A stretch of 48,502 bases of DNA from Reclinomonas americana ATCC 50394 (taxonomy: Eukaryota): positions 1 through 48,502 of the forward strand of contig PS015240.1 of assembly GCA_048213135.1 (NCBI GenBank), read 5' to 3'. Under the pieces are notes generated by a model. It was not told where the DNA came from, made no database searches, and saw nothing but the letters and a program-made list of their open reading frames with translations. A program made the translations under genes and the position numbers. Position 1 is the first letter of the stretch. Every line of letters begins with the position of its first letter. Shown piece after piece: positions 7,225-40,127 of the stretch.

Positions 7225-7907
7225 CATGAACGAGGAGTACGCCGCCCGTGGTTCCGCGATGCCGAGGACGAAGGGAGCTCTCGGTTGATGTGCACGTCAA
7301 AAGCAGACTTGCATTAGTGCTCGGACAAACTCAACAGATAATGAAACGAAGGGGTTTTCAGCGTTTCTTCATGCAAACAAAACACTTCATTCACCACATT
7401 CCAACAATATACAAAACACATAGTTACTCTTCTCCAACAGTCATCTTTCCTTTCAGGAGGCTTGGCCTCAAAAAGGATAGCGGCCTACGTACGCGCTGCA
7501 GTTGTTGAAGCTGGGTGCTGCAGTTGCGTCTCGATGGTAACAACAAATTCATTCACCAACAAACAAGCAACAGCTGTCTTGATGACCAAGTTCAACCGTA
7601 TCCAAAACATCAGCACAGACACCAATCTTGAGGCAGCAGCAGGTAATATAATAGAACTTCACTGAGACATACAAAACAATGAGCGTCTACCAGTGATCGC
7701 CAACAAGTCTCGCGTGCTTTCCTTCTACAACTAAAACTAAGTGTGTTGTCGATGTTGAGAATAAAGACCTATTCAGGACCAGGCCATTCTATTTGGTCTG
7801 AGACTGGTGCGAGACAAGTTGCTTGGTTCTGACTTTGAGCCGGCTTGCAAAACAGCTGCTGCTGCTCGTTGGTGATCAGGAATGAAAAGCTGTTGCCATC
7901 CAATCCC

Positions 7908-8993
7908 CTACAGTCCAAGGCCACCGTCAGAGAAGGACCGATAGGCGACAACCTCAGCCTCCTCCACCAAGAAGCACCGCAGCACGATCTCCACCAGGCA
8001 TCGCGGGTCACCCTCTTCGTCGCCCTCACACTGCATCTCCTGCACTGCGCGCATGGCCGAGCGCGCACAGCCGAGCTCCAGGCGAGCGAGGCCGCACGGC
8101 GTCGACCACACTCTCACCGTCTTGTCCGCACTCCCGCTCACGACATGCTGACTGCAGGGAGTGACGGCAACACTACGCACCCACCCACTGTGTCCCGTCA
8201 GCCGCCGCACCTCCTTTCCACTCGCCAACGACCACACTCGCACTGTGTGGTCGTAACTCCCACTCACTGCGTGCTGACCATCGGCAGTGACAACGACAGC
8301 GTAAACCAAAGACGCGTGTCCATCCATTCGTCGCACCTCCTTGCCACTCGCCAGCAACCACACTCGCACTGTCGTGTCATCGCCCCCGCTCACCACGTGC
8401 AGACCGTCGCAAGTGATGGCGACACAAAACACCACACAACAATATGCATTCCACAGTCGCACTTCTTCCCCAGTCGCAAGAGACCACACTCGCACAGTAG
8501 TATCATCACCCCCGCTCACCACGTGCAGACCATCGGGAGTGACGGCCACAGACATCACCCTTCCCGCGTGTCCCTCCATCCGTTTCACTTGCTCTCCACT
8601 TGCCACAGACCACACTCGCACGCTCTTGTCCTTGCTCCCGCTAACAATGTGCTGCCCGTCGGGAGTGACGGCAACAGAGAGCACGTCTGCAGTATGTCCC
8701 TCCAACTGATACACTTGCTCACCACTCGCCAGTGACCACACTCGCACAGTGCTATCCGCACTTCCGTTCACAATGTGTCGCCCGTCGGGAGTGATGGCGA
8801 GAGACGTCACCCAGTTGGTCTGTCCCTCCAGTCGTTGCGCTTTCTCTCCACTGGCAAGTGGCCACACACGGATTGTCTCGTCAAAGCCGCCACTCACAAC
8901 GTGCTGCCCGTCGGGAGTGATGGCGACAGACCACAGCTTGTCAAGGTGGCCACGCAGGCACTTGTGTGGGAGAGACGGGGGAGGTGAGGACAT
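7908..8993 (-). CDS. WD40 array gene A1: 7-blade WD40 + conserved C-terminal tail
   Basis: Intronless ORF MSSPPPSLPHKCLRGH, 7 GH..V.SVAVTPDG.HVVSG..D.TVRVW repeats, tail STPCGLARLEL...RCLVEIVLRCFLVEE...DGGLGL*. Start chosen by alignment to paralogues. Confidence 0.9.
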   Translation of the reverse strand: MSSPPPSLPHKCLRGHLDKLWSVAITPDGQHVVSGGFDETIRVWPLASGEKAQRLEGQTNWVTSLAITPDGRHIVNGSADSTVRVWSLASGEQVYQLEGHTADVLSVAVTPDGQHIVSGSKDKSVRVWSVASGEQVKRMEGHAGRVMSVAVTPDGLHVVSGGDDTTVRVWSLATGEEVRLWNAYCCVVFCVAITCDGLHVVSGGDDTTVRVWLLASGKEVRRMDGHASLVYAVVVTADGQHAVSGSYDHTVRVWSLASGKEVRRLTGHSGWVRSVAVTPCSQHVVSGSADKTVRVWSTPCGLARLELGCARSAMRAVQEMQCEGDEEGDPRCLVEIVLRCFLVEEAEVVAYRSFSDGGLGL

Positions 8994-9207
8994 GGTGAGA
9001 CAGGGCAAAGGATCGGGCAAAGAGTGTGCGTATTTGACGGAGTTGTCATTTGGAGTGAGGACATGGATAGACTTCGTGTTGTTTATTGAGAGACAAAGCA
9101 ATGCAGAAGCAGGAGGAGAACGAGGGGAAGAAAACAGTAACAGAAAAAACAAAAAGAGTGAAACAAACAGAAGAGGAAAGAGAACAGCGATCAATGCAAA
9201 CAGTAAA

Positions 9208-9238
<31 letters not shown>

Positions 9239-9268
9239 CTTCGTCTTCTTCTTTTCTCTCTCCACGAT

Positions 9269-10348
9269 TCACAGCCCGAGCCCCCCGGCAGAGAATGACC
9301 GATGGACGACAACCTCCGCCTCCTCCACCAAGAAGCACCGCAGCACGATCTCCGCCAGGCATCGAGAATCATCCTCTTCGTCGCCCTCCCCCTGCATTTC
9401 TTGCACGGCACACAACGCCGAACGTACCGCATCGAGCTCTTGCCGAGCCAGGCCGCACGGCGTCAACCACACACGTATCGTCTTGTCCGTACCCCCGCTC
9501 ACGATATGCTGACCGCAGGGAGTGACGGCGACAGACATCACCCAGTGGGTGTGTCTCTCCAATCGTCGCACCTCCTCGCCACTCGTTAACGCCCACACTC
9601 GCACTGTTTGGTCATAACTCCCACTCACCACGTGTTGGCCATTGGGAGTGACGGCGACAGAGGTCACCTTGTCCATGTGCCCCACCAGTCGTCGCACCTC
9701 CTCCTCACTTGCCATGCACCACTCTCGTACAGTGTTGTCCCCACTCCCACTCACAACGAACTGACCGTCGGGTGTGACGGCGACACTGTACACCACACTG
9801 CGATGACCACTCCACCGTCGCACCTCCTCGCCACTCGCCAGCGACCACAGGCGCACTGTGTTATCCCCACTCCCACTCACAAGGTGCTGCCCGTCGGGAG
9901 TGACGGCGACTGCCGACACGGAGCCAATGTGCCCCTCCATTCGTCGCGTCTCTTCACCACTCGCCAGTGACCACACTCGCACTCTCCCGTCTGTATACCC
10001 GCAGATAACACCATCGTGGGTGACGGCAACAGAGAGCACCCAGCTCGCGTGTCCCTCCAACCGTCGCACTTCTGCTCCACTCGCCATTGACCACACTCGC
10101 ACAGTGTTGTCTCCACCGGCACTCACAATGTGCTGACCATCGGGAGTGATGGCGATACTCCTAACCCAGCGTGTGTGCCCCTCCAGCCGACGCACCTCCT
10201 TGCCAGTCACCAGTGACCACACTTGCACTGTCACGTCATTACTCGCAGAAACAATGTGCTGACCATCTGGGGAGGTGGCGAGTGCGGTCACACATTTGGA
10301 GTGCCCGCGCAGGCACTTGTGTGGGAGAGATGAAGGAGTCGAGGCCAT
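9269..10348 (-). CDS. WD40 array gene A2
   Basis: Intronless MASTPSSLPHKCLRGH, 7 WD40 repeats, same tail. Confidence 0.9.
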   Translation of the reverse strand: MASTPSSLPHKCLRGHSKCVTALATSPDGQHIVSASNDVTVQVWSLVTGKEVRRLEGHTRWVRSIAITPDGQHIVSAGGDNTVRVWSMASGAEVRRLEGHASWVLSVAVTHDGVICGYTDGRVRVWSLASGEETRRMEGHIGSVSAVAVTPDGQHLVSGSGDNTVRLWSLASGEEVRRWSGHRSVVYSVAVTPDGQFVVSGSGDNTVREWCMASEEEVRRLVGHMDKVTSVAVTPNGQHVVSGSYDQTVRVWALTSGEEVRRLERHTHWVMSVAVTPCGQHIVSGGTDKTIRVWLTPCGLARQELDAVRSALCAVQEMQGEGDEEDDSRCLAEIVLRCFLVEEAEVVVHRSFSAGGLGL

Positions 10349-10609
10349 GGTGCGTGACTGAGAGCAGAGAGATAAATTGATGCACTGTGTGCGAGTCACG
10401 ATGTGGAATGAGTTGTCCTTCAAACGAAGGACTTACTTCTCAACAAGGACGTCGCTCGTCAACGTTAACTGTATTATTACAACCAAGAGAGACAGAGCCT
10501 GGCAGAGGCGCGGATGCGGCATCAGAAAGCAACGTAGAGGCAAATTTACGACATGAGAGAGAGAGAGAGAGACGGACAGCAAGCACAACCACCTCCTTCT
10601 CTTGGGACA

Positions 10610-11701
10610 TCACAGTCGGAGACTGCCGTCTGCGAAGCATCTGTGCACAATGCTCTCTGCATCCTCGACGATGAAACACCGCAACACAATCTCCACCAAG
10701 CAGCGCCGATCCACTTCTTCTTCGCCTTCTCCCTCACGTTGCATCTCCTGCACAGCGCGCATCGCTGAACGTGCCGCGTCGAGCTCCTGTCGAGCGAAAC
10801 CGCACGGCGTCGACCACACTCGCACTGTGCCATCGTCATTTCCACTCACGACATGCTGACCGTCGGGAGTGAAGGCGACAGCGTGCACGTAACTGGCGTG
10901 CCCCTGCAGTCGTTGCACTTCACTGCCTGTGGCCAGCGACCACACTCGCACCGTCCGGTCCCAGCTCCCGCTGACGACATGCTGACCATCGGGGGTCACG
11001 GCGACTACTGACACCGGATAGGTGTGACCCTCCATCCGTCTCACTTCGTTCCCGCTCGCCAGCGACCACACGCGCACGGTCATATCATTGCTGCCACTGA
11101 CTACGTGCTGGCTATCGGGAGTGACGACGACTGCAGACACCGAGTCCGTATGCCCCTCCATCCGTCTCACCTCCTCCCCGCTCGCCAGTGACCACACATG
11201 TACAATCTTGTCACGACTCCCACTCACCACGTGCTGACCATCGAGAGTGACGGCGACAGACCACACCACACTGATGTGCCCCTCCAAGCGTCGCACCTCC
11301 TCGCCACTCGCCACTGACCACACACGGACTGTGTAGTCATCACTTGCACTCACCACGTGATGTCCATCGGGGGTGACGGCGACAGACAACACCGTACTGA
11401 TGTGCCCCTCCAAGCGTCGCACCTCCTCGCCACTCGCCAGTGACCACACTCGCACAGTGAAGTCCTGGCTCCCACTGACGATATGTTGACCATCGAGAGT
11501 CACCGCGACGGAGAACACGATGCCGGTGTGTCCCACCAGCCGACGCACCTCCTTGCCACTTGTAAGTGACCACACACGCACAGTCTTGTCTCTTCCACCG
11601 CTCACTACATGCTGACCATCGCGGTTGATGGTGATGGAACGCACTTGTAGAGTATGTCCCTCCAAGCACATGCTCAGGAGGAAGCGAGGGGCTGAGGACA
11701 T
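10610..11701 (-). CDS. WD40 array gene A3
   Basis: Intronless MSSAPRFLLSMCLEGH, 7 WD40 repeats, same tail. Confidence 0.9.
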   Translation of the reverse strand: MSSAPRFLLSMCLEGHTLQVRSITINRDGQHVVSGGRDKTVRVWSLTSGKEVRRLVGHTGIVFSVAVTLDGQHIVSGSQDFTVRVWSLASGEEVRRLEGHISTVLSVAVTPDGHHVVSASDDYTVRVWSVASGEEVRRLEGHISVVWSVAVTLDGQHVVSGSRDKIVHVWSLASGEEVRRMEGHTDSVSAVVVTPDSQHVVSGSNDMTVRVWSLASGNEVRRMEGHTYPVSVVAVTPDGQHVVSGSWDRTVRVWSLATGSEVQRLQGHASYVHAVAFTPDGQHVVSGNDDGTVRVWSTPCGFARQELDAARSAMRAVQEMQREGEGEEEVDRRCLVEIVLRCFIVEDAESIVHRCFADGSLRL

Positions 11702-11904
11702 GATGTGTGTGTGTGTGCCGACGGGCAGAGTGCGTGTGTGTGTGATTTGTTGGTGAATGAATGTGTCCTCCCCTTTGCGGACGGGGGGACGTCACGTCGT
11801 CGCCATTGTTGCATGCTTGCTGCTCGACGATTTACTATACAGACAAGGCGGACGAGCACTTGATGACGCGGACACACCGGAAACCCTCTCTCCCTCTCCA
11901 CTGG

Positions 11905-12984
11905 TCACAGTCGAAGACTCTCGTCGGTGAGGCAACGATGGATGACAACCTCCGCCTCCTCCACGATGAAACACCGCAACACAATCTCTGGCAAGCACCG
12001 TGAATCCACCTCCTCTTCCTCCTCACCCTCCCTGTGCTGCATCTCCTGCACCGCCCGCATCGCTGAACGTGCCGCATCCAGTTCCGGCCGAGCCAGGCCG
12101 TACGGCGTTGACCACACTCGCACAGAGCCATCCCCACCTCCACTCACCACGTGCTGTCCATCCGGCGCGACGGCCACACAGCGCACCGAGAAACCCTCCA
12201 ATCTTTGCACTTCTCGGCCTGTCTCCACGGACCATACTCGCATCGTTTGGTCCTTGCTCCCGCTCACAACGTGGCGACCATCCGGAGTGACGGCGACGGA
12301 CCATACCCGCTCAGTGTGTCCCTCCAGACGCCACACTTGTTCGCCAGTCACCAGTGACCACACGCACACTGTCTTGTCCGCACTTCCACCCACTACATGC
12401 CGACCGTCGGGCGTCATGGCGAGACTCCCTGCGCCTCCCTTCATCCGTCGCACCTCTTCTCCGCTCGCCAGCGACCACACACGCACAGTGCTGTCGTTGC
12501 TGCCACTCACCACATGCTGTCCGTCGCGTGTAATGGCCACAGCGAGCACTAATCTCGTGTGTCCCTTCAGCACTCTGACTTGTTCTCCACTCGCCAGAGA
12601 CCACACTCGAATGGTAGTGTCCCAGCTGCCACTTACTGCATGGCGACCGTCGGGAGTGACGGCGACAGACTCAAGCCAGTCAGTGTGACCCTTCAATCGG
12701 CGCACTTCTTTACCGCTCGCCAGTGACCAGACTCGCACAGTCCTGTCCAGACCCCCACTGACAGCGTACTCGCTGTCGGGAGAAACAGCGACAGAGCACA
12801 CATAGTTGGTGTGTCCCTCCAATCGCCGCACTTCCTTCCCACTCGCCAGCGACCACACTCGCACAGTGAAGTCATCACTTCCACTGACGATGTGCTGGCC
12901 ATCGGGAGTGACGGCGACGGACTTGACTTTGCTGGAATGTCCATCCAAGCACTTGCATATGAGAAGAGGAGGAGAGGAAGACAT
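11905..12984 (-). CDS. WD40 array gene A4
   Basis: Intronless MSSSPPLLICKCLDGH, 7 WD40 repeats, tail variant RCLPEIVLRCFIV. Confidence 0.9.
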   Translation of the reverse strand: MSSSPPLLICKCLDGHSSKVKSVAVTPDGQHIVSGSDDFTVRVWSLASGKEVRRLEGHTNYVCSVAVSPDSEYAVSGGLDRTVRVWSLASGKEVRRLKGHTDWLESVAVTPDGRHAVSGSWDTTIRVWSLASGEQVRVLKGHTRLVLAVAITRDGQHVVSGSNDSTVRVWSLASGEEVRRMKGGAGSLAMTPDGRHVVGGSADKTVCVWSLVTGEQVWRLEGHTERVWSVAVTPDGRHVVSGSKDQTMRVWSVETGREVQRLEGFSVRCVAVAPDGQHVVSGGGDGSVRVWSTPYGLARPELDAARSAMRAVQEMQHREGEEEEEVDSRCLPEIVLRCFIVEEAEVVIHRCLTDESLRL

Positions 12985-13248
12985 GCGTTCGGGAGTGGAT
13001 TTCGTTGATTTTTCCGTGTCCTCATTGGAGGGGACGAAACGTGATCGGTCGTCGATGCTCGGTGTTGCTGACCCTGCATGATAGTTTATTATGTGGTGCG
13101 ATAGACAGAGACATAGGTTGCCGAAGAAGCACAACATGAACAATTTGGCGACGAAAGAGTCAAGAAACACAACAGAGACAATACAGAAAGCGAGAGCGAA
13201 GAGGGCGAAGATAGAGAGCAGGGCCTTCTCACTCCTTTCCAACACAAG

Positions 13249-14316
13249 TCACAGTCGAAGGCTGTCGTCCGTGAAGCACCGATGAACGATAACCTCCGCC
13301 TCCTCGACCAAGAAGCACCGCAGAGCAAGCTCTGGAAGGCAGCGCGAATCCACTTCCTCTTCCTCCCCCTGCATCTCCTGCACCGCCCGCATCGCTGAAC
13401 GTGCCGCATCAAGTTCCGGCCGAGCGAGACCACACGGCGTCGACCACACTCGCACAGAGCCGTCCTCACCTCCACTCACCACGTGCTGCCCATCGGCAGT
13501 GACAGCCACACAGCGCACCGAGAAACCCTCCAACCTTTGCACTTCTCGGCCTGTCTCCACGGACCATACTCGCATCGTTTGGTCTCTGCTCCCGCTCACA
13601 ATGTGGCGACCATCCGGAGTGACAGCGACGGACCATACCCGCCCAGTGTGTCCCTCCAGACGCCACACTTGTTCGCCAGTCACCAGTGACCACACGCACA
13701 CTGTCTTGTCCGCACTTCCACCCACTACATGCCGACCGTCGGGCGTGATGGCGAGACTCCCTGCGCGTCCCTTCATCCGTCGCACTTCTTCTCCGCTCGC
13801 CAGCGACCATACACGCACAGTGCCGTCACCGCCGGCACTCACCACATGCTGTCCGTCGGGTGTGATGGCCACAGCGAGCACAAATGTCGTGTGCCCCTTC
13901 ATCACTCTCACCTCTTCACCACTCGCCAGCGACCACACTCGAATGGTGGTGTCCCAACTGCCACTCACTACGTGGCGACCATCGGGAGTGACAGCAACAG
14001 CGTGCACAACTTGAGTGTGACCCTCCAATCGTCGATCTTCTCCGCCACTCGCCAGTGACCAGACTCTCACAGTCCTATCAAGACTCCCACTGACAGCGTA
14101 CTCGCTGTCGGTAGTAACGGCGACAGAGCTCACATAGTTGGTGTGACCCTCCAACCGCCGCACTTCCTTCCCAATCGCCAGCGACCACACTCGCACAGTG
14201 AAGTCCTCACTTCCACTGACGATGTGCTGGCCATCGGGAGTGACGGCGACGGACTTGACTTTGCTGGAATGTGCACCCAAGCACTTGCATATGAGAAGAG
14301 GAGGAGAGATAGACAT
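13249..14316 (-). CDS. WD40 array gene A5 (recent duplicate of A4)
   Basis: Intronless MSISPPLLICKCLGAH. Shares the shortened blades (G.AGSLA, GFSVRCV) with A4. Confidence 0.9.
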   Translation of the reverse strand: MSISPPLLICKCLGAHSSKVKSVAVTPDGQHIVSGSEDFTVRVWSLAIGKEVRRLEGHTNYVSSVAVTTDSEYAVSGSLDRTVRVWSLASGGEDRRLEGHTQVVHAVAVTPDGRHVVSGSWDTTIRVWSLASGEEVRVMKGHTTFVLAVAITPDGQHVVSAGGDGTVRVWSLASGEEVRRMKGRAGSLAITPDGRHVVGGSADKTVCVWSLVTGEQVWRLEGHTGRVWSVAVTPDGRHIVSGSRDQTMRVWSVETGREVQRLEGFSVRCVAVTADGQHVVSGGEDGSVRVWSTPCGLARPELDAARSAMRAVQEMQGEEEEVDSRCLPELALRCFLVEEAEVIVHRCFTDDSLRL

Positions 14317-14559
14317 GCGTTTGAGACTGATTTTTCCATGTCCTCTTTGGAGGGGACGAAACGTGAACGGCCGTCGATGCTCGGTGTAGTTTATTATGTG
14401 GTGCAATACACAGAGACATAGGCTGCTGAGCAGAACAACAATTTGGCGACGTCGTACATGCACATGACGAAGAAACGTCGATAAAGAAACACAAGACAAC
14501 ACAGAAAGGGAGAGAGAGAGAGAGAGCACAGGGCTTTCTCACTCCTTCTCCAACACAAG

Positions 14560-15639
14560 TCACAGTCCCATGCCCCCGTCAGAGACGGACCGATGAACGA
14601 CAACCTCCGCCTCCTCCACCAGGAAGCAGCGAAGGACGATCTCCACCAAGCAACGCGGATCCTCTTCGCCCTCATCCTGCATTTCCTGTGCGGCATGCAT
14701 GGCCGAGCGTGCTGCATCGAGCTCCTGCCGAGCGAGACCGTACAGCGTGGACCAAACTTGCAATGTCTTGTCAAGACAGCCGCTCACAATTTGTTGGCCG
14801 TCAGGAGTGACGGCGACACACTTCACACCTGCAGTGTGCCCCTCCAACCGCCGCACCTCTTCTCCACTCGCCAGCGACCACATACGCACTGTCTTGTCTC
14901 CACTCCCACTCACCACATGGCGGCCGTCGGCTGTGACGGCGACAGACTTCACACCTCCAGTGTGTCCCTCCATTCGACGCACCTCCTCGCCGCTTGCCAT
15001 GCACCACATGCGCACTGTTCCGTCGTCACTGCCACGCACCACGTATTGGGAGTCGGGAGTGACGGCGACAGACAGCACTTTTTCCCGGGCAGTCGCAAAC
15101 AGTCGCACCTCCTTCCCACTCGCCAACGACCACATTCGCACGGTTTCATCCCGACTCCCACTCACTATGTGCTGACCGTCAGGAGCGACGGCAACACACA
15201 GCACCCGGCTCCTGTGTCCCTTCAACAGTCGCACGTGCTTACCAGTCGCCAGCGACCACACTCGCACTGTGCAGTCCTCACCCCCACTGACGGCATGCTG
15301 GCTGTCGGGAATGACGGCCACGGTCCACACTGTACCAATGTGCCCCGCCAAGCGTCGCACCACCGTGCCACTGGCGAGGGACCACACTCGCACAGAAAAG
15401 TCCTCACTCCCACTCACGATGTGCTGGCCATCGGGAGTCACTGCCACAGAGTTCACCCGTCCAGTGTGTCCCTCCAGCCGTTGCACCTCCTGTCCACTCG
15501 CGAGTGACCACACTCGCACAGTGCGGTCACTGCTGCCACTCACAACAAATTGGCCATCGCGAGTGATGGCGACAGAGTGCACCACTGCCGTGTGCCCACG
15601 CAGGTACTTGCAATGGAGGGATGGGGGAGCCGAGGACAT
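14560..15639 (-). CDS. WD40 array gene A6
   Basis: Intronless MSSAPPSLHCKYLRGH, 7 WD40 repeats, same tail. Confidence 0.9.
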   Translation of the reverse strand: MSSAPPSLHCKYLRGHTAVVHSVAITRDGQFVVSGSSDRTVRVWSLASGQEVQRLEGHTGRVNSVAVTPDGQHIVSGSEDFSVRVWSLASGTVVRRLAGHIGTVWTVAVIPDSQHAVSGGEDCTVRVWSLATGKHVRLLKGHRSRVLCVAVAPDGQHIVSGSRDETVRMWSLASGKEVRLFATAREKVLSVAVTPDSQYVVRGSDDGTVRMWCMASGEEVRRMEGHTGGVKSVAVTADGRHVVSGSGDKTVRMWSLASGEEVRRLEGHTAGVKCVAVTPDGQQIVSGCLDKTLQVWSTLYGLARQELDAARSAMHAAQEMQDEGEEDPRCLVEIVLRCFLVEEAEVVVHRSVSDGGMGL

Positions 15640-15726
15640 GGTGCGAGAGAGCGTATAAAGAGAGAAAAGAAGGCAACGAGAGTGTGAATGCGCGCGTTCG
15701 TGTCTGGTGGAGGGATGTGCCGGCGT

Positions 15727-15746
15727 TGTCCTTCACTCAAAGGACA
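15727..15746. promoter_or_regulatory. Representative GTCC-N10-GGAC inverted repeat found upstream of every WD40 array gene
   Basis: TGTCC-ttcactcaaa-GGACA. Equivalents start at 9044, 10414, 11764, 13017, 14339, 16690, 33178, 34601 and 35934 (all N10), and at 31831 (N5). Confidence 0.75.
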
Positions 15747-15963
15747 CTCCTTTCCTTGAACTTCGTTCTTGTCGCCGTGCAACATGCGCGTCGCTCGTCA
15801 ACGCGGAGAATAGTTTATTATGTGCAAGGCAAAAAAATGAATGGCGAAAGTTGGCAACAATGGCAGCACAAACACACACACACAAGTGCAGAATTGTACA
15901 ATGATAGAGAGAGAGAGAGAGAGAGAGAGAGCTCCAAGCATTTCTCTTGAAACAGAAAGAGAA

Positions 15964-16623
15964 TCACAGTCCCATGCCCCCGTCAGAGACGGATCGATGC
16001 ACCACGACAGCTGCGTCCTCCACCAGGAAGCATCGCAGCACGAACTCCACCAAGCAACGCGGGTCACCCTCTTCGTCGTCCTTCCCCTGCATCCCCTGCA
16101 CCGCGCGCATCGCCGAACCCGCGAGATCAAGCTCCAGGCGAGCGAGGCCGCACGGCGTCGACCACACTCTCACCAACGAGTCGTCACACGCAGTTACGAT
16201 GTGCTGACCATCAGGAGAGACAGCGATACAATTCGTCCCTACGAAGTTCTCGCTCATCCGCCACACCTCTCGTCCGCTCTTCATCGACCAAACTCGTACG
16301 GTGGAGTCGAACATGTAACTCCCACTAATCACATGCTGAGCATCGGGAGTGACGGCGACAGCCAACACTGCATCGGCATGACCCTCCAGCCGTCGCACCA
16401 CGCTTCCACTTGTCAGCGAATGAACAAGCAGGGTGCCATCATGGTCCCCACTCACAACGTGCTGACCATCGAGAGNNNNNNNNNNNNNNNNNNNNNNNNN
16501 NNNNNNNNNNNNNNNNNNNNNNNNNNNNNNNNNNNNNNNNNNNNNNNNNNNNNNNNNNNNNNNNNNNNNNNNNNNNNNNNNNNNNNNNNNNNNNNNNNNN
16601 NNNNNNNNNNNNNAGGAGGACAT
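15964..16623 (-). CDS. WD40 array gene A7 (interrupted by N gap; blade number unknown)
   Basis: MSS start, gap 16476-16613, then about 3 visible WD40 repeats and the conserved tail. Confidence 0.8.
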   Translation of the reverse strand: MSSXXXXXXXXXXXXXXXXXXXXXXXXXXXXXXXXXXXXXXXXXXXXXXXLDGQHVVSGDHDGTLLVHSLTSGSVVRRLEGHADAVLAVAVTPDAQHVISGSYMFDSTVRVWSMKSGREVWRMSENFVGTNCIAVSPDGQHIVTACDDSLVRVWSTPCGLARLELDLAGSAMRAVQGMQGKDDEEGDPRCLVEFVLRCFLVEDAAVVVHRSVSDGGMGL

Positions 16624-16750
16624 TGTGCGAAAGAGAGGCGAGAGAGAGAGCGATGAGAGTGTGAATGCGCTGCGTGCGTGTGCTTGTAATGTCCTTCACA
16701 TGGAGGACACGGCTTGAACTTCCGGGCAACAAAGGGTTTACTCAACTTCA

Positions 16751-17991: not shown

Positions 17992-19617
17992 TCAAGGGAA
18001 TCGTGGGAACATGCCGCCGGTGCCGAGAACGTCGCCACCTCCGCGGTGGCTGTTGAAGGGATCCATGCCGCCGCCGCCGGTGCCGCTGCTGCCTTCGCCT
18101 TGCTTGCTCTTTGGCTTCTTCTGCGGGGGGGATGAGAAGGAGAAGAAGTGAGGTGAGGGCGAGGGGAGGGGAAAGGGGGGAAGGGGGAAGGGGAAGGNNN
18201 NNNNNNNNNNNNNNNNNGTCGATACCCACGGTCGCCGCCATGTCGGAGATGGACAGGGTGAGGTAGGTGTGCGTGAGGCGGCGAATGTGGTGCCGCTTGA
18301 TGGCGCCAATCGCTTGCCTCACCAGACCCATGTTGGAGTCCTGCAGCACCCAACATCAGTGACTTCTCCTTCCCCTCCTCTCCTTCTGCGTCACCACACC
18401 TTGGCGTACTGCTCGACATTCTTCTGCAACACAGCCTCGACGGCGGCGCGATCAAATTTGGACACGGCCTCGGCCAACTCCAAATAATCCTCCGCCCCCG
18501 CCTTCAGGTCGCGCAATTGCACCGCCTGCACGCCGCGCGGCTGCAGCACACGGCCGTCGCTAATCAACGACACCAAGATGAACTTGCGATACGCATCGAG
18601 CGCAATGGCGCTGAGGGTGGCGCACGGGTGTTGCAGGGCGGCGGTGAAGGCCGCCAGCGCCTGCTTCCAGCTCTTGATGGCGGCGAATGCCACACCCGCG
18701 TACTGGAAGTAGCGCAGCACATCCGAGGCGGTGATGCCGCTCTCCGAGCTCAAATCAAACACCGGTCGCTCGGCCGCAAAGCGCGCGGCCTCGGCAAACT
18801 TTTGCTGGCGCAACAGCAGCATCAAAATGTCGGCGTGCGGTCCCGTCAGCTGCTCACCGTTGCTGGTCAGCTTGGCGGCGGCCAGTTGCAGATGCTGCAC
18901 GCCGCGCGAGGCCATCTCCACGGGGATGGTGGTGGCGTATTGTCGGCACAGGAAGCTGACTGTGAAGGGAGAGAGAAGGGGGGTGAGGGAAGGACGGTGG
19001 GGAAGGGGGTAAAATGCGGGACGACGCAACATCGGTCACCCGCCAGCCTCAGCTGCCTCTCACTGCCCTGCTCAATCACGGTCTCCACCTGTCGCCACAG
19101 AGTCGGGTAGTCCACTGGGAAGTGTCCGTGTGCGGCGCCGCCGCCAGCCGCGCCGGGGAGGTTGGCGGCTTGGATTTTCGCGAACCTGGAGGTGGGGGAA
19201 GGGCGTAAGGGAAAGGGGGAAGGAGGTGGGGAAGGGGGGCAACGGGAAGAACACAGGGAGAGAGGAAAACAAGAACAGCACGAATACTGTGTCTTTTCTG
19301 CAACTGCTGAGACCATTCTCTATCGTGGCTATCACTCAGAAGAGGTGAGGAGACGACTGAAGATGTTGACAATAAAAGAACAGGTTGAAGTAAGTGATGG
19401 CCATACGAAGTACAAGAGGAAAGGGGGAGATTAGCACACGGAGCCACGCGACAGGGTGCACAGAAACGTTACACATGAAGAATCGAACTGTTGTGTTGAT
19501 CTGCGAGTTGGGGAGAGGCAGACGTCGTGGAGAGAAAGGAGAGGAAATGATACGACAATGACTTGAGTTGCGGAAGCTACACGCAGAGAGAAGAACAGAC
19601 TGACATCCCACTTACTC

Positions 19618-21828: not shown

Positions 21829-22297
21829 ATGAGTCGCGTGGGAGACGGCGAAGACGAGCGCGAGGCCGGCGAGTCACTGCTGGCAAGCGACGCACTGGAG
21901 GAGGTAACCACAATGCAAGCAATAAGGAAACAACGAAACACTCGTCTCACCCACACTCTCTCATGTGCAGGATGATGGTGTCACCTCGCCTTCTCTTGCC
22001 CTCGACGCGCCTTCCTCTTCCTCTGCTGCTGCTGCTGCTGTTGTAGCAGCAGCTGCGCCTGTGTCGTCTTCTGTTGATCCAATGTCTGTGTTGGATTTGG
22101 CGGAGGATGAGGAGGATGATGATGAGGAGGAGGATCCTGAGTTTACTCTGGAGGCCAAGGAGAAGGTGGCCAGGAAATATACGTATGAGGGGGGAAAGGG
22201 AGGAGGGAGGGAGGGAGGGAGGGAGGGAGGGAGGGAGGGAGGGAGGGAGGGAGAGGAGAAGGGAAAGAGTGAGAGAGAGGGAGTGTGTGTGAGAGAC

Positions 22298-22328
<31 letters not shown>

Positions 22329-22395
22329 AGGAAGAGAGAGAAGAGAGAGGAGAGAGAGGAGGAGTGAGAGAGAGAGACGAGAGAGAGAGAGAGAG

Positions 22396-22452
<57 letters not shown>

Positions 22453-23018
22453 TGAGAGACAGAGACAGTGCTGGTGAACTCTGCGACAAGAGGCAGTCGG
22501 TGATACGAAGCGAGTCTCGCTCTTCTTTCAGCTGCAGACCTCCGACTTCTGTTTCCCTTCTCCCTCTCCCCACCTCGTCTCTCGTTTCTCTCTTTCTCTC
22601 GCGCTGTCTCCTCATTCACGCTGAGTGTGGCGACGCTTTCCCTGGGGCACTGCTTGAGATGATCGCCGAGTAGTTGTCCCTTCTTGTGTGATCCTCACCG
22701 CTGACTTTTCGTGTCTCTGCACATTTTCTCGCCGGGTTCCTGCTCCTCCCATGGATGTGGGCCGTGGCGGTGCTCATGATCGGCCAGTGGAAGAAGAAGG
22801 CCGCTGGCATCACGCCCAAGCTGGAGTGGTGTTGCGTCATCATCATCGTCTTTCATCGCCTCCCTGCTTCTCATGTCTCACCGCGCCCGCCAGACTCGCG
22901 CACGTGCGCCATCCTCTTCTTCTCCTCCATCGGCGCCTTTGTCATGTGGATCGTCAGCTACTACTACCTCAGCGGTTCCACTCTCTTCGACATGAATCTA
23001 TCCGTGCAATACATTTGA
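21829..23018 (+). CDS. PSENEN: Gamma-secretase subunit PEN-2 homolog with acidic N-terminal extension
   Basis: Exons 21829-21903, 21971-22178, 22723-22830, 22894-23018 (516 nt) give ...EAKEKVARKYFLAGFLLLPWMWAV...KLEWYSRTCAILFFSSIGAFVMWIVSYY..., matching PEN-2 [24 protein letters not shown]. Intron 2 must be AT-AC. Confidence 0.82.
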
Positions 23019-23045
23019 GCTGCAATGTACGACGCGGCAATGCAA

Positions 23046-24705
23046 TCATTGACTGGCCGCCGCCGCAGCAGCAGCAGCAGGAGCGTCTCCCGCTGCTGGC
23101 TTGTCCTTCATGAGCTCCGGCACAATCTGGTGCAGGTCGATTGGCTCACTCAGTGTGACGTACACCTGCGGTGGAGGGAAGACAAAGAGGGTGTGAGTGG
23201 GCGTCGGGGAGGGTGGTTTGGAGAGGGGACAGCGTCTATCTTGGAACACAGTCACAGCAGCTGCAGATAGGAAAGATGTACACGAAGAAAGAGAATAGTG
23301 AAACAGAACACTCGAGTCTCCTGGACAAGCCAACTGAGGTAATACTGCGCAGCTATAATATCTCCCACGTTCTCCCCTCTGCCTCTCTAAAACACACTGC
23401 GTGCATTCTCCAATTAACGCAAGCGCGCAACATGCAAGAACTCAACGACGAGAGCTCCTTTCACTCTCTTTTGTCTTTACTTCTTCTCTCTCATTCTCTC
23501 AAAGTACTGTGTGTAATGCAAGACTTGCTCTCTCTCTCTCTCTCTGCGAGTGCGCGTGTACTCTCTTTCTGCGTGAAACGAAGTGTGCATTCTCTGAAAA
23601 GTAACGCATGAATGACCTGTTGTTGGCGTTCCTCCTCAAAAAGGTGCACGACCTCCCCTTGATCCCTTCTCTTTGTCTCTCTCACACACACAACACGCAC
23701 ACACTCTCTCTCTCCCTTGCTGCTCCTCCTCCACATCATGCGAATGCTCACTCTCTCACACGCAATGTGCATTCTCCGTATCGTAACGCAGAGCGCAACG
23801 CCGCCTCGTTGTTCTCTCCTCAACAACGTGCGAGCAACGCATCCCTCTCCCTTCTCCCCCTCCCTCCCTCGCTGCACGCAGTGAGCATCCTCTGTAGCAT
23901 AATTCACGAAAGGCCTGCTGTTGCTGCTCCTCCTCCTCAACAACGTGCGGACGACTCGTTCTCTCCTCTCTCTCTCCCTCGCTTTCTCTCTCTCTCTCTC
24001 TGTCCAAGGAAGTGCGCATTCTCTGCACGGTAAATACAACGCCGCCTCTTTGCTTTCCTTGTCAACAACGTGCGAACGGCCCGCATCTCCGTCTCTCTCT
24101 CTCTCTCTCTCTCTCTCTCTNNNNNNNNNNNNNNNNNNNNNNNNNNNNNNNNNNNNNNNNNNNNNNNNNNNNNNNNNNNNNNNNNNNNNNNNNNNNNNNN
24201 NNNNNNNNNNNNNNNNNNNNNNNNNNNNNNNNNNNNNNNNNNNNNNNNNNNNNNNNNNNNNNNNNNNNNNNNNNNNNNNNNNNNNNNNNNNNNNNNNNNN
24301 NNNNNNNNNNNNNNNNNNNNNNNNNNNNNNNNNNNNNNNNNNNNNNNNNNNNNNNNNNNNNNNNNNNNNNNNNNNNTCCCTTTCTTTCCTCCCTCCCCTC
24401 TCACCCTTTCTCTCTCTCTCTCTCCCCTTATCCCCTTCCCTCCCACCCACCTTCTTCCAATCGGGCTTCTTATACACCCTCCCCGCACGCCGCTTCTCCC
24501 GCTTCAGCTCGCCTCGTCGATTCACCGTGTGCACCTTGGTGATGCCCGGCAGGCGATACACATCCTGCAACACCGCCAGGATCTCCGGCTTGCTCAGGTG
24601 ATTAGGTGCGCGGAAGGCGACCTCCTTGGAGCCATGCTCCAGCGAGGAGACCAGCAGGCGCAGAGAGTGAGAGGGGAAGCGGATGTAGCGGTGGATGCGA
24701 GTGGC
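23046..24705 (-). CDS. MRPL23: Mitochondrial (bacterial-type) ribosomal protein uL23; first exon not located
   Basis: Exons 24705-24451 and 23165-23046: VAFRAPNHLSKPEILAVLQDVY..ITKVHTVNRRG...KKPDWKK|VYVTL is the uL23 signature. Confidence 0.82.
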
Positions 24706-29916: not shown

Positions 29917-30704
29917 TTCGTCGTCGAAGTGAATGATGTAGGATCGAGCGTCTGTTGGGTCCGTCGGTAGCGAATATTCTCTCTCGGGACAAAAAGCATA
30001 ACTTCACTTTGCCGGCTTCCTGGATGAGTGGGAAAAGCGATTCGCTGAGCTGGCGGTTCCNNNNNNNNNNNNNNNNNNNNCCAGACGCAAAGCGTTTTCT
30101 GCGATCGTACACGGCACGTCCAATTCGGGAAAAGGCCATAAGCCAGGCAAACAAAGCAAAGCCGGGTCCGGATCCGTGAAGCAGGCAAAGCAAAAGCAGT
30201 GGTGGTGTGGCGTGGTTGAAACACAAGAGAGCTTGTCATGTTGTTGGTGAGGCTCATATTGGTGGTGGCTGGTGGTGGGCGCAGTTGTTGTTGTTGTTGT
30301 TGTTGTTGTCATTGTTGTCGCATCAGTGATTTCAAACACTGTGACAGCCACTGACCGGTGGCCGCACAGTGAGAAACAAGAGATCGAGGGCTCAGGGTTG
30401 AAGACGACGTTGACCACAGACACAATGTTGTTGTTGTTGTCGTTGTCGTCATTATGTACAGCGATGGCGGTGGAGGGGAAGAACGTGCAAGACTTGCTGG
30501 TTGCATAAAAGCAAGGCCAGTGTCAGCAGTTATTAGTACTCCCGTGCGCGAACACAGGCAGCCACGTGTGCCGCCCAAATGACATGATCGTGTCGGGCGA
30601 CAAACGCACAGCACCACCAACAATATACAAGACACATAAATACTCTACTCCAGCAGTCGACACATCCCGCCGTCGATTGTCAGAAAGAACCCCCCTCCCC
30701 TTCG

Positions 30705-31802
30705 TTATCCCCCCTCGGGCCTCCATCGACGCACCACCATCTCCGCCTCCACCACCAGACACCGCCGCAACACCACCTCCACCAAACACCTTCCCTCCAC
30801 GAGCTCCCTCACCTCCCCACCCTCCTCCTGCAGCTGCACGGCACGCACGGCGGAGCGCACACCATCCAACTCCCACTGCGCGCACCCGCACGGTGTCGAC
30901 CACACGAGCAGCGGCTCGTCGCTGCAGGCGCACACAATGTGCTGGCCATCGCGAGAGACAGCAAGCGAGGTCAGATACTCGCTGCCGCCACGCAAACATT
31001 GCACGGCGTCGCCAGTCGCCAGCGACCACAGACGCACCGTCAGGTCCACGCTGCCACTGACAATGTAGCGGTCGTCGGGGGTGACGGCCACGGCGAGCAC
31101 CTCGTCCGTGTGGCCCTCCAGCCGTCGCACTTCGCGACCGCTCGCCAGCGACCACACGCGCACCGTGCAATCGTCACTGCCGCTCACCACATGCCGCCCG
31201 TCAGCGGCCACAGCAATCGAGGTCACCGCATTGCTGTGCCCCGTCAATCTTCGCAGCTCGTGACCAGTCGCCAGCGTCCACACACGCACCGTCCCATCAT
31301 CGCTCCCGCTCACCACATGCAGCCCGTCGGTAGTGAAGCAAACAGCGCGCACAGACGCTGTGTGTCCTTCCAGCAACCTCCGTACCCGACAGCTCTCCAC
31401 CATCGACAGCACTCGCACCACGCAGTCGCTGCATCCACTCACCACTGCACGCCCGTCGGGGCTGACTGCGACGCACCACACGCGACTCGCGTGATTTTCC
31501 CACTCGCGCACCATCTCCCCACTCGCCAACGACCACAATCGCACGAGTCCACCGCTGCACGCACTGACCACATGCTCCCCATCAGGCGTGACAGCGACTG
31601 CGTCGACCTCACCGTCGTGTGTCTCCGCCATGCGCAGCAAATGCGCATGCTCATGGTCGTCATGCGTCAGTGATCGCACACGCACCACACCCTCACTGCT
31701 TCCCGTCACCACGTGGCGACTGTCGGCCGTGGTGGCGACACACAGCACTCGCTCACCGCAGCTGCGCATGCACTTGTGGAAGAAGCGAAGAGCTGCGCAC
31801 AT
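30705..31802 (-). CDS. WD40 array gene B0 (most divergent member)
   Basis: Intronless MCAALRFFHKCMRS, 7 WD40 repeats, tail STPCGCAQWELDGVRSAVRAVQ...GRCLVEVVLRRCLVVEAE. Confidence 0.88.
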   Translation of the reverse strand: MCAALRFFHKCMRSCGERVLCVATTADSRHVVTGSSEGVVRVRSLTHDDHEHAHLLRMAETHDGEVDAVAVTPDGEHVVSACSGGLVRLWSLASGEMVREWENHASRVWCVAVSPDGRAVVSGCSDCVVRVLSMVESCRVRRLLEGHTASVRAVCFTTDGLHVVSGSDDGTVRVWTLATGHELRRLTGHSNAVTSIAVAADGRHVVSGSDDCTVRVWSLASGREVRRLEGHTDEVLAVAVTPDDRYIVSGSVDLTVRLWSLATGDAVQCLRGGSEYLTSLAVSRDGQHIVCACSDEPLLVWSTPCGCAQWELDGVRSAVRAVQLQEEGGEVRELVEGRCLVEVVLRRCLVVEAEMVVRRWRPEGG

Positions 31803-31868
31803 GGATGGAGACAACGAAAGACGGGGGGTGTGTCCCAAAAGGACACATTCTCTTTCGCACACGAACGC

Positions 31869-32957
31869 ATGACTTCTGCGCCTCCCTCCCTCCCATGCTC
31901 ACGCACACTTCGTCACGCCCGCGCTGTATTCACTGTCGCCATCACTCCCGATGGCCGTCACATTGTCAGCGGCAACAAAGACACGACTGTGCGCGTGTGG
32001 TCCATGAAGAGTGGGGAGCAAGTGTTGTGCTTGGGGGGGCATACAGCCACGCCGTGCGCTGTCGCCGTCACTCCTGATGGCCAGCACGTGGTGAGTGGGA
32101 GCTTGGACAAAACACTGCGTGTGTGGTCGCTGGCGAGTGGGGAGGAGGTGCGTCAATTTCAGGATGGGTGCTTGCACGCAGTGTTGTCAGTGGCCATCAC
32201 TCCCGATAGCCAGTACGCGGTGAGTGGAAGCGTCGATGACACATTGCGAGTGTGGTCACTGGTGACTGGGGAGCTTGTGCGAAGCATCACCGGGCACGCT
32301 GGGTGTGTGTGGTCTGTTGCCATCACCCCCGACAGTGAGCATGTTGTGAGTGGGAGTCTGGATAGGACTGTGCGTGTGTGGTCGCTGGTGAGTGGAAAAC
32401 TAGTGCGACGGCTTGAGGGGCACACTGGTTCAGTGTTCTGTGTTGCTGTCACTCCCGACGGGAAGTTTATTGTGAGTTGTTCTCACGACAAGACTGTGCG
32501 TGTTTGGTCGCTGGCAAGTGGAGACGAGGTGCGACGGTTGGAGGGACACACTGCTCTGGTGTGGAGTGTCGCGATCACTCCCGATGGTCAGCACGTTGTC
32601 AGTGGCAGCAGGGACACCACCGTGCGAGTGTGGTCGCTGGTGAGTGGCGAAGAAGTGCGACGAATGGAGCGACACACTTCCGTTGTGCGATCGGTCGTCG
32701 TCGCTCCCGATGGGCAGCACATCGTGAGCGGCGGTGATGACGAGACAGTGCGGGTGTGGGCGACGCCGTGCGGACTCGCTCGACAGGAGCTCGACCTCGC
32801 TCGAAAGGCTATGCAGTCGGTGCAGGAGATGCAGAACGTAGAAGAGGAGGGATTGGATCGGCGCTGTCTGGTGGAGATCGTCCTTCGCTGCTTCCTTGTT
32901 GAGGATGCAGAGGTCATTCTTCATCGGTGCTCTGTCGATGGCATACTGCGGTTGTAG
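31869..32957 (+). CDS. WD40 array gene B1
   Basis: Intronless MTSAPPSLPCSRTLRH, 7 WD40 repeats, tail. Head-to-head with B0. Confidence 0.9.
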   Translation: MTSAPPSLPCSRTLRHARAVFTVAITPDGRHIVSGNKDTTVRVWSMKSGEQVLCLGGHTATPCAVAVTPDGQHVVSGSLDKTLRVWSLASGEEVRQFQDGCLHAVLSVAITPDSQYAVSGSVDDTLRVWSLVTGELVRSITGHAGCVWSVAITPDSEHVVSGSLDRTVRVWSLVSGKLVRRLEGHTGSVFCVAVTPDGKFIVSCSHDKTVRVWSLASGDEVRRLEGHTALVWSVAITPDGQHVVSGSRDTTVRVWSLVSGEEVRRMERHTSVVRSVVVAPDGQHIVSGGDDETVRVWATPCGLARQELDLARKAMQSVQEMQNVEEEGLDRRCLVEIVLRCFLVEDAEVILHRCSVDGILRL

Positions 32958-32992
32958 GAGAAGCGGCGACAGAGGCAAGCGTTTTGCGAAGG

Positions 32993-33027
<35 letters not shown>

Positions 33028-33263
33028 CGTTTTCTGATTCATTGGTTGTTTGTTATCGCGCCTTGACGACCGACAGTTTGTTGTCGCCTCCGCTTCTAGT
33101 GCCTGGTTCTTTGAGTCACCCTAGTGCAGTAAACGCGGCTTGCTGAAGGCAGCGCTAGTGGAAGTCAATCAAATGTTGGTCCTCGCTCCTAAGGACACAT
33201 CGCACACACATCAAATCGCGCAAGCGCACGCACACACCCTCCGTTTCCGTCCCCTTTCCAAAC

Positions 33264-34411
33264 ATGACCTCGTCTCCCCTCTCTCTCCTGTGCATGCGTG
33301 TCTGGGAGCACCGTGCCGCCGTGTCGTCTGTCGCCGTCACCGTTGATGGCCAGTATGTTGTGAGCGGTTGTGTGGACAAGACAGTGCGTGTGTGGTCGCT
33401 GGCGAGTGGAAAAGAGGTGCGACAGTTGAAGGGACACGCCGATTCCGTGTTCTCTGTCGCCGTTACTCCGGATGGTCAGCACATTGTGAGTGGAGCTGAT
33501 GACGGTGACAAAACAGTGCGTGTGTGGTCGACGAAGAGTGGAGAGGAAGTGCGACGATTGGAGGGACACACCGGAGCAGTGATGTCTGTCGCCGTCTCTC
33601 CCGACAGCCAGCGCATTGTGAGCGGAAGCCGTGACAAGACAGTGCGTGTGTGGTCGTTGGCGAGCGGAGAAGAGTTNNNNNNNNNNNNNNNNNNNNNNNN
33701 NNNNNNGCGACGACTGGAGGGTCACACTGAAATGGTGAGGTCTGTTGTCGTTACTCCTGATGGTCAGCACGTTGTGAGTGGAGGCGGTGCCGACAAGTCA
33801 GTGCGTGTGTGGTCACTGGTGAGCGGTGAAGAGGTGCGACGGCTGGAGGGCCACACTGGTTCGGTGATCTGTGCCACTGTCACTCCCGATGGTCAGTTCG
33901 TTGTGAGTGGCGGTTTCGACCTGAGTATGCGCGTGTGGTCACTGGCGAGCGGCGAGGAGGTGCGCCGGTTGGAGGGACACGAGGCAGGNNNNNNNNNNNN
34001 NNNNNNNNAGTACTGTCTGTCGCCCTCACTGCTGATGGTGAGCGCATTGTCAGTGGGGGCGATGACAACACCGTGCGAGTGTGGTCAATGGCGAGCGGCG
34101 AAGAAGTTCGACGGGTGGAAGAGCATGCGTGGGGGGTGTGGTCTGTTGTCATCACTCCCGACGGGCAACACATTGTGAGTGGCAGTGAGGACGAGACAGT
34201 GCGGGTGTGGTCAACGCCGTGCGGCCTTGCTCGACAGGAGCTCGACTGTTGTCGCTCGGCCATGCAGTCGGTGCAGGAGATGCAGCCGGAGGACGAAGAG
34301 GAGGCAGGTGATCCGCGCTGTCTTGTGGAGATTGTCTTGCGCTGCTTTCTGGTCGAGGATGCCGCAGTCATTCTTCATCGGTGCTCTGTCGATGGCAGTC
34401 TGCGATTGTAG
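33264..34411 (+). CDS. WD40 array gene B2 (two N gaps; frame offset at the second gap)
   Basis: MTSSPLSLLCMRVWEH, WD40 repeats, tail ...HRCSVDGSLRL*. The frame change coincides with the N run at about 33989-34008. Confidence 0.85.
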
Positions 34412-34676
34412 GAGAAGCGGCGACAGAAGCGGCGTCGTGTTGCAAAGGAGTGTCTCTTTCTCGTGTGTTTCTTGTGTATTTGCTAATCTTGATGCAACTA
34501 TACTGCGTTCTCTGTTAATTGCTGGTTCATGTAGTCTTTGTCTTTTCTCTTCTGTGTAGTAAACGCGAGTGCTGAAGGTAGTGGAAGTAAATCAAATATT
34601 GGTCCTCGGTGCTGAGGACACGGAAATCTAACACGACGACCGGCGGTGCGCGCAAACACACCCGCCCTTTCCCAAC

Positions 34677-35777
34677 ATGACCTCATCGCCTCCGTCTCTC
34701 TCGTGCAAGTGCTTCCAGGGACACACTGGCCATGTGCTCTGTGTTACCGTCACTCCCAATAGTCAGCACGTGGTGAGTGGCAGTGCGGACAGCTCTGTGC
34801 GGGTGTGGTCGCTGGCGACTCGGGAGGAGGTGCAGCAGTTCGAGGGACACACTGGCGTCGTGTGGTGTGTCACCGTCACTCCCGACGGTCAGCACATTGT
34901 GAGTGGAGACAGCGACAATATGATCCGAGTGTGGTCGCTGGCGAGTGGTAATGAGGTGCAACAACTGCACGGTCACACTGGTCCGGTGGACTCAGTTGCC
35001 GTCGTTCCCGATGGTCAACACGTCGTGAGTGGGAGTACTGACAGAACCGCGCGCGTGTGGTCATTGGTGAGTGGTGCACAATTGCGGCGATTAGAGGGAC
35101 ACACTGAAGGGGTGTCTTCCGTCGCCATTGCTCCCGATGGGAAACACGTTGTGAGCGGGGGTGATGACAACATTGTGCGTGTGTGGTCATTGGCGACTGG
35201 AGAGGAAGTGCGCCGATTCGAGGGACACACGTTTTGCGCATGTTCTGTCGCATTCACTCCCGATGGTCAGTTCGTGGTGAGTGGTGGCGACCGAACTGTG
35301 CGCGTGTGGTCGCTGGCGAGCGGCGAGGAAGTGCGACGGTTTGAGAGCCACACGGCAGGAGTACTGACTGTCGCCGTCACTCCCGACGGTCAGCACGTTG
35401 TTAGCGGAAGTGGTGACAAAACAGTACGAGTTTGGTCATTGGTGAGTGGCAAGGAGGTGCGACGACTGGTGGAGCACGCATACGAGGTGCGATCTGTTGC
35501 AGTGACTCCCGACGGTCAGCACATTTTGTGTTGTGGCTTCTCCTTTGTCAGCGACTGGCCGATTCGCATATGGTCAACACCGTGCGGCCTCGCTCGACAG
35601 GAGCTCGACCGCGCTCGTGCGGCCATGCAGTCGGTGCAGGAGATGCAGCCGGAGGACGAGGAAGAGGAGGCAGGTGATCCGCGCTGTCTGGTGGAGATCG
35701 TCTTGCGCTGCTTTCTGGTCGAGGATGCCGCAGTCATTCTTCATCGGTGTTTCGCTGATGGCAGTCTGCGACTGTAA
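34677..35777 (+). CDS. WD40 array gene B3
   Basis: Intronless MTSSPPSLSCKCFQGH, 7 WD40 repeats, tail. Confidence 0.9.
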   Translation: MTSSPPSLSCKCFQGHTGHVLCVTVTPNSQHVVSGSADSSVRVWSLATREEVQQFEGHTGVVWCVTVTPDGQHIVSGDSDNMIRVWSLASGNEVQQLHGHTGPVDSVAVVPDGQHVVSGSTDRTARVWSLVSGAQLRRLEGHTEGVSSVAIAPDGKHVVSGGDDNIVRVWSLATGEEVRRFEGHTFCACSVAFTPDGQFVVSGGDRTVRVWSLASGEEVRRFESHTAGVLTVAVTPDGQHVVSGSGDKTVRVWSLVSGKEVRRLVEHAYEVRSVAVTPDGQHILCCGFSFVSDWPIRIWSTPCGLARQELDRARAAMQSVQEMQPEDEEEEAGDPRCLVEIVLRCFLVEDAAVILHRCFADGSLRL

Positions 35778-35995
35778 ACGTCTCTCTCTCTCTCATTTAT
35801 TGATTGTTTGCTTATTATCTCTGCATTTCGCGAGTCTGTGAATCCTATTGCCGTTGTTGATCCTTCGTTGTCTCTTCCCCTCCTGCACAACAAAGTAAAC
35901 GTGCGTGCTGAAGGCAGTCGCATCATGGAAAAATGTCCCCTTCGCCGAGGACACGCTTTGCTGTTTTGTTCCTTTCTTCTCCCCACGCCAGCATC

Positions 35996-37081: not shown

Positions 37082-37224
37082 GTCTCTCTCTCAAGCTACC
37101 AGTTAGAATCTTTTTCCTCACTCACTGTCCGCTTTTTAGATAAGCCTGCTGATGAAATATGCTCCACCACATTAGCAACACTGTACACGTTTCACTGCTG
37201 TTGTGGGAGCTTCTCTCTCTTCGC

Positions 37225-40080: not shown

Positions 40081-40092
40081 ATGTCCTTCAAT

Positions 40093-40127
<35 letters not shown>

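Follow-up and report, generated by a model that had tools for sequence, protein, structure and literature searches.

AT-AC II introns are rare. In the available portion of Sheth 2006 (PMC1557818) there are 24 of them in about 610,000 introns across five model genomes (15 in human, with SCN4A/SCN5A and TAF2 as examples, 6 in mouse, 3 in fly, and 0 in both C. elegans and Arabidopsis), and an A-C terminal pair is reported to rescue splicing in yeast and human. Their hallmark, in the accessible text of Lin 2010 (PMC2831892), is a G at +5 together with a T at +6, and their origin rests on a proposal made in the same text, according to which minor AT-AC introns underwent a C-to-G change at +5 and were then trapped. 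An AT-AC intron also occurs among the major-like introns of Giardia, and its classification is called unclear in the excerpt available (PMC3510501). Co-evolved U1 5' arms are described, in the portion of the preprint at hand, for Mastigamoeba balamuthi (ACGUAC) and Entamoeba, and Physarum is said to have both a standard and a modified U1 (Roy and Bowser, bioRxiv 10.1101/2022.06.08.495308).

We analysed an intron in a PEN-2-like gene within a window of 48,502 nucleotides (the whole stretch of DNA under study), taken from contig C232 of a eukaryotic assembly of 108 Mb and 16,441 contigs. Like AT-AC II introns, it has AT-AC ends, a major-type donor (G+5, T+6), a U2-type branch site and a pyrimidine tract, and its host has minor introns. 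Unlike the known AT-AC II introns, it belongs to a microbial eukaryote, has a C at +4 and is known here from DNA alone, and a variant U1 fits its donor better than the canonical U1 does. It resembles the Giardia case, as far as the excerpt describes it, in being a protist AT-AC intron with major-type signals, and differs from it in that both spliceosomes and many canonical minor introns are found here side by side. We put the probability that the PEN-2 intron is a U2-type AT-AC (AT-AC II) intron at about 75%, and in that case it probably adds one more member to a rare type of intron that is already known. No published description of such a case was found, judging from titles and abstract openings.

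The predicted gene has four exons on the forward strand (21829-21903, 21971-22178, 22723-22830 and 22894-23018) that form an open frame of 171 codons. Exon 1, the first coding exon, encodes an acidic N-terminal extension whose start codon we infer; exon 2 continues as a low-complexity extension and ends with KVARK and the first base of a Tyr codon. The predicted N-terminus (window 21829-22140) is an acidic, Ala/Ser-rich extension of roughly 80 residues. Two of the three introns are GT-AG: intron 1 (21904-21970, 67 nt, GTAACC...TGCAG), whose donor has canonical U1 as its best partner (-6.6 kcal/mol), and intron 3 (22831-22893, 63 nt), whose GTTGCGT-class donor pairs with the variant U1 in a register shifted by one base (-8.3 kcal/mol). 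Between them lies the AT-AC intron (22179-22722; 544 nt, phase 1, ATACGTATG...TCTGCAC). Exon 3 encodes a PEN-2-like hydrophobic segment, and exon 4 a second hydrophobic segment followed by the stop codon.

Searched by itself against Pfam, exon 3 gave PEN-2 (PF10251) as the top family, with 19.3-20.3 bits, below the curated cut-off of 25 bits, and with alignments to profile positions 11-31 (E 7.8e-4, 20.3 bits) and 13-32 (E 0.0015); neither exon 2 nor exon 4 matched Pfam by itself. Presenilin is present in the genome (PF01080 matches, E 2.5e-24, on two contigs). Elsewhere in the genome, PF10251 has one weak match (E 0.42) within an unrelated long frame, in a search that missed the PEN-2 locus too. 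In-frame sequence searches for relatives of the PEN-2-like protein returned no homologue, and protein-atlas matches to the gene had low scores (0.86 or lower) and pointed elsewhere. The single match from a metagenome scan lay on the opposite strand, looked bacterial and was rejected by eye. We consider the gene a probable PEN-2. Gene callers restricted to GT-AG ends or to the U12 consensus would mis-annotate it.

The donor ATACGTAT (22179-22186) conforms to the major donor consensus except at +1, with G+5, T+6 and complementarity to U1 and U6: positions +2 to +8 complement nucleotides 1-7 of the variant U1, and +5 to +8 complement the U6 box. The earlier note had stated that this donor lacks the U12 consensus, and indeed it differs from ATATCCTT at 4/8 positions, including +5 and +6, retaining only ATA and the T at +8. 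In the standard register, we counted 9 Watson-Crick pairs between the donor and the variant U1, 7 with canonical U1, 6 with U6, 4 with U6atac and 1 with U11. The variant U1 forms 7 contiguous pairs at +2 to +8 plus pairs at -2/-3, while +1 faces an A where a C would be usual, and the U6 pairing covers all of +5 to +8. The U11 count is 1 (+2 G-U), and none of the four U6atac pairs falls at +4 to +6; for comparison, a true minor donor from this genome has 6 pairs with U11 and 3-4 with U1. Duplex energies, calculated for short duplexes without modifications, were -6.9 kcal/mol for the variant U1, -2.1 for canonical U1, -2.7 for U6, 0.0 for U11 and -0.4 for U6atac. From the base composition of the window, the chance of ACGTAT at +3 to +8 is 1.7e-4, a post hoc figure for positions of which +5 to +8 are also selected by canonical U1 and U6.

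Near the 3' end, the U2-type branch candidate that the earlier note had pointed out, GCTGAC (22700-22705), is of the CTRAC type, and its branch A (22704) lies 18 nt from the 3' end of the intron; CTGAC and CTCAC are both local branch motifs. Just upstream is a CTCAC-type candidate, TCCTCAC (22692-22698), which ends 24 nt before the intron end and has 2 mismatches to TCCTTAAC and 3 to TCCTTGAC. Its description as U12-like did not hold up: the minor branch site in this genome is TCCTTRAC, and among 260 search windows after ordinary GTTGCGT donors, CTCAC occurs in 80, TCCTCAC in 5 and TCCTTRAC in 1. TCCTCAC is thus an ordinary local CTCAC branch motif and does not establish U12 ancestry. A pyrimidine-rich tract (13/17) with the TGCAC acceptor completes the intron (22706-22722). 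The ends had also been likened to local GTACG/TGCAG sites; TGCAG is a typical acceptor here, whereas GTACG is merely a weak donor class (z 1.4; GTACGT z 2.3). The interior begins with a GGGA/GA simple-repeat tract (22187-22448), and the first 270 nt of the intron are 95% purine. A GA/TC hairpin in the intron fold was no better than in shuffled sequences (z 0.25).

The genome has what looks like a working minor system. Searching it for minor snRNAs, as the earlier note had suggested, was positive in part: U11 (51 bits, two copies) and U6atac (38 and 35 bits, on C392 and C1225) scored over the cut-off, a probable U12 scored 26.5 bits, below the cut-off, with an intact GUAAGGA branch box and a possible helix I with this U6atac, and U4atac was not found. 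Genome-wide, the pattern RTATCCTT-N25-55-TCCTYRAC had 100 matches, as compared with 14 in a reversed control; among these 100 are the copies from both haplotypes as well as 6 near-identical rows, possibly a repeat. By row count, 96 are A-type (ATATCCTT start) and 84 have a TCCTTGAC branch site. In 30/30 minor loci read, an AC or AG lies about 11-30 nt past the branch motif, scanning from the seventh nucleotide onward. The predicted minor introns adhere to the textbook consensus, and most of them are AT-AC, although a set chosen by pattern is perfect by construction and would miss degenerate minor introns. The AT-AC bias is far weaker among human minor introns, of which 169/671 are AT-AC in the available text of Sheth 2006 (PMC1557818). 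On C20, two canonical minor introns, one GT-AG and one AT-AC, lie 3 kb apart, at least one of them in what appears by eye to be a voltage-gated-channel-like gene.

The 5' splice-site box of U6atac is ACCGA instead of AAGGA, positions 13 and 14 both being C rather than the A and G of the Rfam consensus. This U6atac pairs with canonical minor donors only at +4, +5 and +8, and its positions 14-16 fit +4 to +6 of GTTTCG donors. A second, canonical U6atac was searched for in the genome and none was found. Because the sole U6atac type found fails to match canonical minor donors at +6/+7, U6atac pairing is a poor discriminator in this genome.

U12-type AT-AC introns have the same terminal dinucleotides as the PEN-2 intron, and this host has U11, U6atac and a probable U12, together with minor introns. 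However, the PEN-2 donor and branch depart from the consensus (an RTATCCTT donor and a TCCTTRAC branch) that the genome's own minor introns keep. The DNA instead has AT/AC dinucleotides, a major-type donor, and a U2-type branch site and pyrimidine tract before YAC, as in AT-AC II introns. The suggestion that this is a rare U2-type AT-AC intron is therefore supported by snRNA complementarity and by the contrast with the canonical minor introns of the same genome. The further suggestion, of an intron presently caught between U12 and U2 types, fared worse: beyond ATA and the T at +8 the donor is unlike ATATCCTT, and TCCTCAC is not the local minor branch site.

Whether an AT-AC intron is needed at all depends on the junction. 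As proposed, removal of 22179-22722 gives RKYFLAG, which is colinear with what we take to be the PEN-2 sequence RKYYLGG, and leaves the 171-codon frame open. Many genes are present in two copies in the assembly, at about 97% identity, and we read such pairs as two haplotypes; the second copy of this gene, on C280, is 97% identical and probably the other haplotype. It has both AT-AC termini, GCTGAC and TCCTCAC unchanged, the last 38 intron bases, which include the pyrimidine tract and acceptor, are the same, and the intron differs, read by eye, by a 1-nt indel, apart from the length of the repeat tract. The identical termini make a single sequencing error unlikely. Assembly gaps and noisy stretches within the intron might suggest errors at both terminal bases (true G...G), but two separately assembled copies agree at both ends, and we give this explanation almost no credence; the AT...AC ends at 22179-22722 are confirmed as real. 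Reads over 22620-23060 were found in none of 4 runs out of the 24 listed (shares of 0.12 or less, in a run search with a GA repeat in the query). AT-AC splicing would likewise be unnecessary if GT-AG splicing used an AG no earlier than 22787 (22166-22787, for example), or if the gene were broken or something other than PEN-2. We tested 236 canonical donor/acceptor pairs that keep the frame around the junction, of which 134 are open, and the 110 open GT/GC-AG pairs, together with a Pfam score under the cut-off, are what this alternative has in its favour. Yet in all 110 the acceptor lies at or beyond 22787, and the only segment that matches PEN-2 is deleted. The earlier note's argument that GT-AG fails was borne out, in that AGs in 22600-22800 end only at 22625, 22658, 22670, 22673, 22787, 22793, 22796 and 22799, with an in-frame TGA at 22689-22691; a GTATGA donor at 22183 was rejected, having no AG in its frame. 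Exons 3-4 differ between the two copies by 3 substitutions, all synonymous in this frame (read by eye), including two in the PEN-2-matching segment. With presenilin present, and with the other PF10251 match being so weak, we regard this alternative as improbable. A different AT-AC junction is also conceivable, as 23 AT-AC pairs retain the Pfam-matching segment, 4 of them with KVARK as well. Donor 22177 (ATATACGT) with acceptor 22705, or donor 22179 or 22185 with acceptor 22698, keeps the frame open and adds 5-10 residues before the hydrophobic segment, and ATATACGT is nearer the minor consensus than the donor at 22179, with 2 mismatches to ATATCCTT. These junctions disrupt the RKY-F spacing and leave the pyrimidine tract and TGCAC as exon sequence, acceptor 22705 lies merely 7 nt past TCCTCAC, and donor 22177 has just 3 pairs with U11, making them decidedly improbable.

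With the junction at 22179-22722, the intron could still be removed by the minor spliceosome, or by a hybrid route with U1-type donor recognition and U12 at TCCTCAC, which would make it a degenerate minor intron or a conversion intermediate. The minor snRNAs described above exist, minor introns here are 96% A-type, and the 24 nt from the end of TCCTCAC to the intron end falls within the range of roughly 11-30 nt of the 30 minor loci. Moreover, a one-base shift gives U11 5 scattered pairs and lets the altered U6atac pair with C+4/G+5. Against this route stand the 4/8 donor mismatches at positions that include +5 and +6, the 2-3 mismatches of TCCTCAC to the local minor branch site and its occurrence in ordinary introns, and the lack of a class of introns combining ATANGTR with a U12 branch. 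Minor or hybrid splicing is thus unlikely, and we prefer the U2-type AT-AC reading.

Under the U2-type AT-AC reading, U1 would bind donor positions +2 to +8, either as the variant U1, with its 7 contiguous pairs plus -2/-3, or as canonical U1 with fewer. U6 would then take over +5 to +8 (GTAT), and U2 would use GCTGAC (A at 22704) or the CTCAC just upstream. A-C pairing of the first and last intron bases would replace the ordinary non-Watson-Crick G-G pairing, and the near-perfect match at +5 to +8 could compensate for the lost G+1.

Two types of U1 occur in the genome: the canonical type on C343, and the variant on C429 and C479. The variant, whose 5' arm starts with AUACGUAACUUG, scored 64 bits over the whole model (cut-off 69.5). 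A CCCACAA-like element lies 62-72 nt upstream of its start, as it does at U2, U6, U11 and U6atac, and from this element alone we infer that the variant U1 is expressed. Its arm is complementary to GTTGCGT donors once the register is shifted. No other donor is linked as strongly to a downstream acceptor as GTTGCGT (125/284, z 15.7, in a 585-kb sample without bacterial-looking loci; z 5.7 for the GTGCGT class), and a G at -1 is rare at donors of its class (14/149 in a 380-kb sample). Because the variant U1 pairs with GTTGCGT one base out of register, it is explained without the AT-AC intron, and its fit to the AT donor may be incidental or may be what the intron depends on to function. We consider it possible, but less likely than not, that the variant, with an A at position 8 that makes it blind to G+1, lets the major spliceosome handle the AT-AC intron. 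If it does, a single snRNA would serve two classes of non-standard donor, each in its own register, and would open a route between minor AT-AC and major introns with the terminal bases unchanged.

Among GT-AG introns, donors of the form GTT(G/T)CG(T) make up a major class, which has CTCAC/CTCAT branch motifs and is found also in the actin gene at about 37225-38842 (reverse strand). The SmE intron after QPI, presumably a U12 intron in animals and plants, is GTTGCGT-class here. U6 is standard, with three copies sharing one core sequence, and a search of the genome for a second U6 type found none. U2 snRNA occurs as two divergent types (C14; C409 and C371), both with the standard branch box. Our literature search found no earlier description of GTTGCG donors. 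A derivation of the GTTGCG introns from minor introns by transformation, as in Physarum, was considered and rejected in view of their CTCAC/CTCAT branch motifs and the separate canonical minor introns. As far as the available part of Roy and Bowser (bioRxiv 10.1101/2022.06.08.495308) goes, the variant U1 shares with co-evolved arms the U-to-G change at position 5 that pairs with C+4, and two U1 types coexist as in Physarum. The variant differs from those arms in also having A at position 8, in its shifted register on GTTGCGT and in having no +1 partner on the AT donor.

The PEN-2 intron may descend from an old AT-AC intron of the minor type that was converted and then trapped, or from a GT-AG intron whose two terminal bases were both swapped. 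The rare pathway from U12-type to U2-type AT-AC introns set out in the available text of Lin 2010 (PMC2831892) predicts that C+5>G and T+6 would leave a donor of exactly this kind trapped, and the large A-type minor pool here favours conversion from minor to U2 type. That pathway starts from a U12 intron, and our search for orthologues that might have one at this PEN-2 position found none; the literature yielded no PSENEN minor intron, a point on which intron databases and preprint supplements may bear. The absence of any U12 relic allows a double swap, and a past U12 origin is possible. A genome with nearly all-AT-AC minor introns and two U1 types offers a natural test of the Lin 2010 proposal and of the tolerance of U1 for A+1.

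We found no genome-wide class of such introns. Short introns of the form ATACGTAT...YRCAC showed no excess over control (159 vs 185), and none of the 29 matched places inspected was convincing. ATACGT followed by a purine tract had 14 matches vs 22 in the control; 2 of these are the PEN-2 gene, and a reading of 10 of the remaining 12 revealed no convincing intron. ATACGT with a U12-like branch (1 vs 6) and ATANGTR donors with a U12 branch site (10 vs 34) were not enriched over controls either. The motif TCCTTAAC..YAS alone was uninformative (185 vs 1138), with 59 of the first 100 rows on two bacterial-looking contigs over 2 Mb. These contigs, C1 and C2, look bacterial by size and motif content and inflate genome-wide pattern counts. 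Two further genes were checked: SPC25 had no usable locus, and ARPC5 has three ordinary GT-AG introns.

The remainder of the window contains a Rad51-family paralogue (5830-7224, forward strand), COP9 subunit 3 (18391-19035, reverse strand), a divergent, intron-rich actin (37225-38842, reverse strand) and a tandem pair of similar Gln-rich open frames with His/Lys-rich tails (40066-41679, forward strand). About a dozen tandem single-exon WD40-repeat genes, which by eye have a common C-terminal tail, occupy about 7900-16700 (reverse strand) and 30700-37100.
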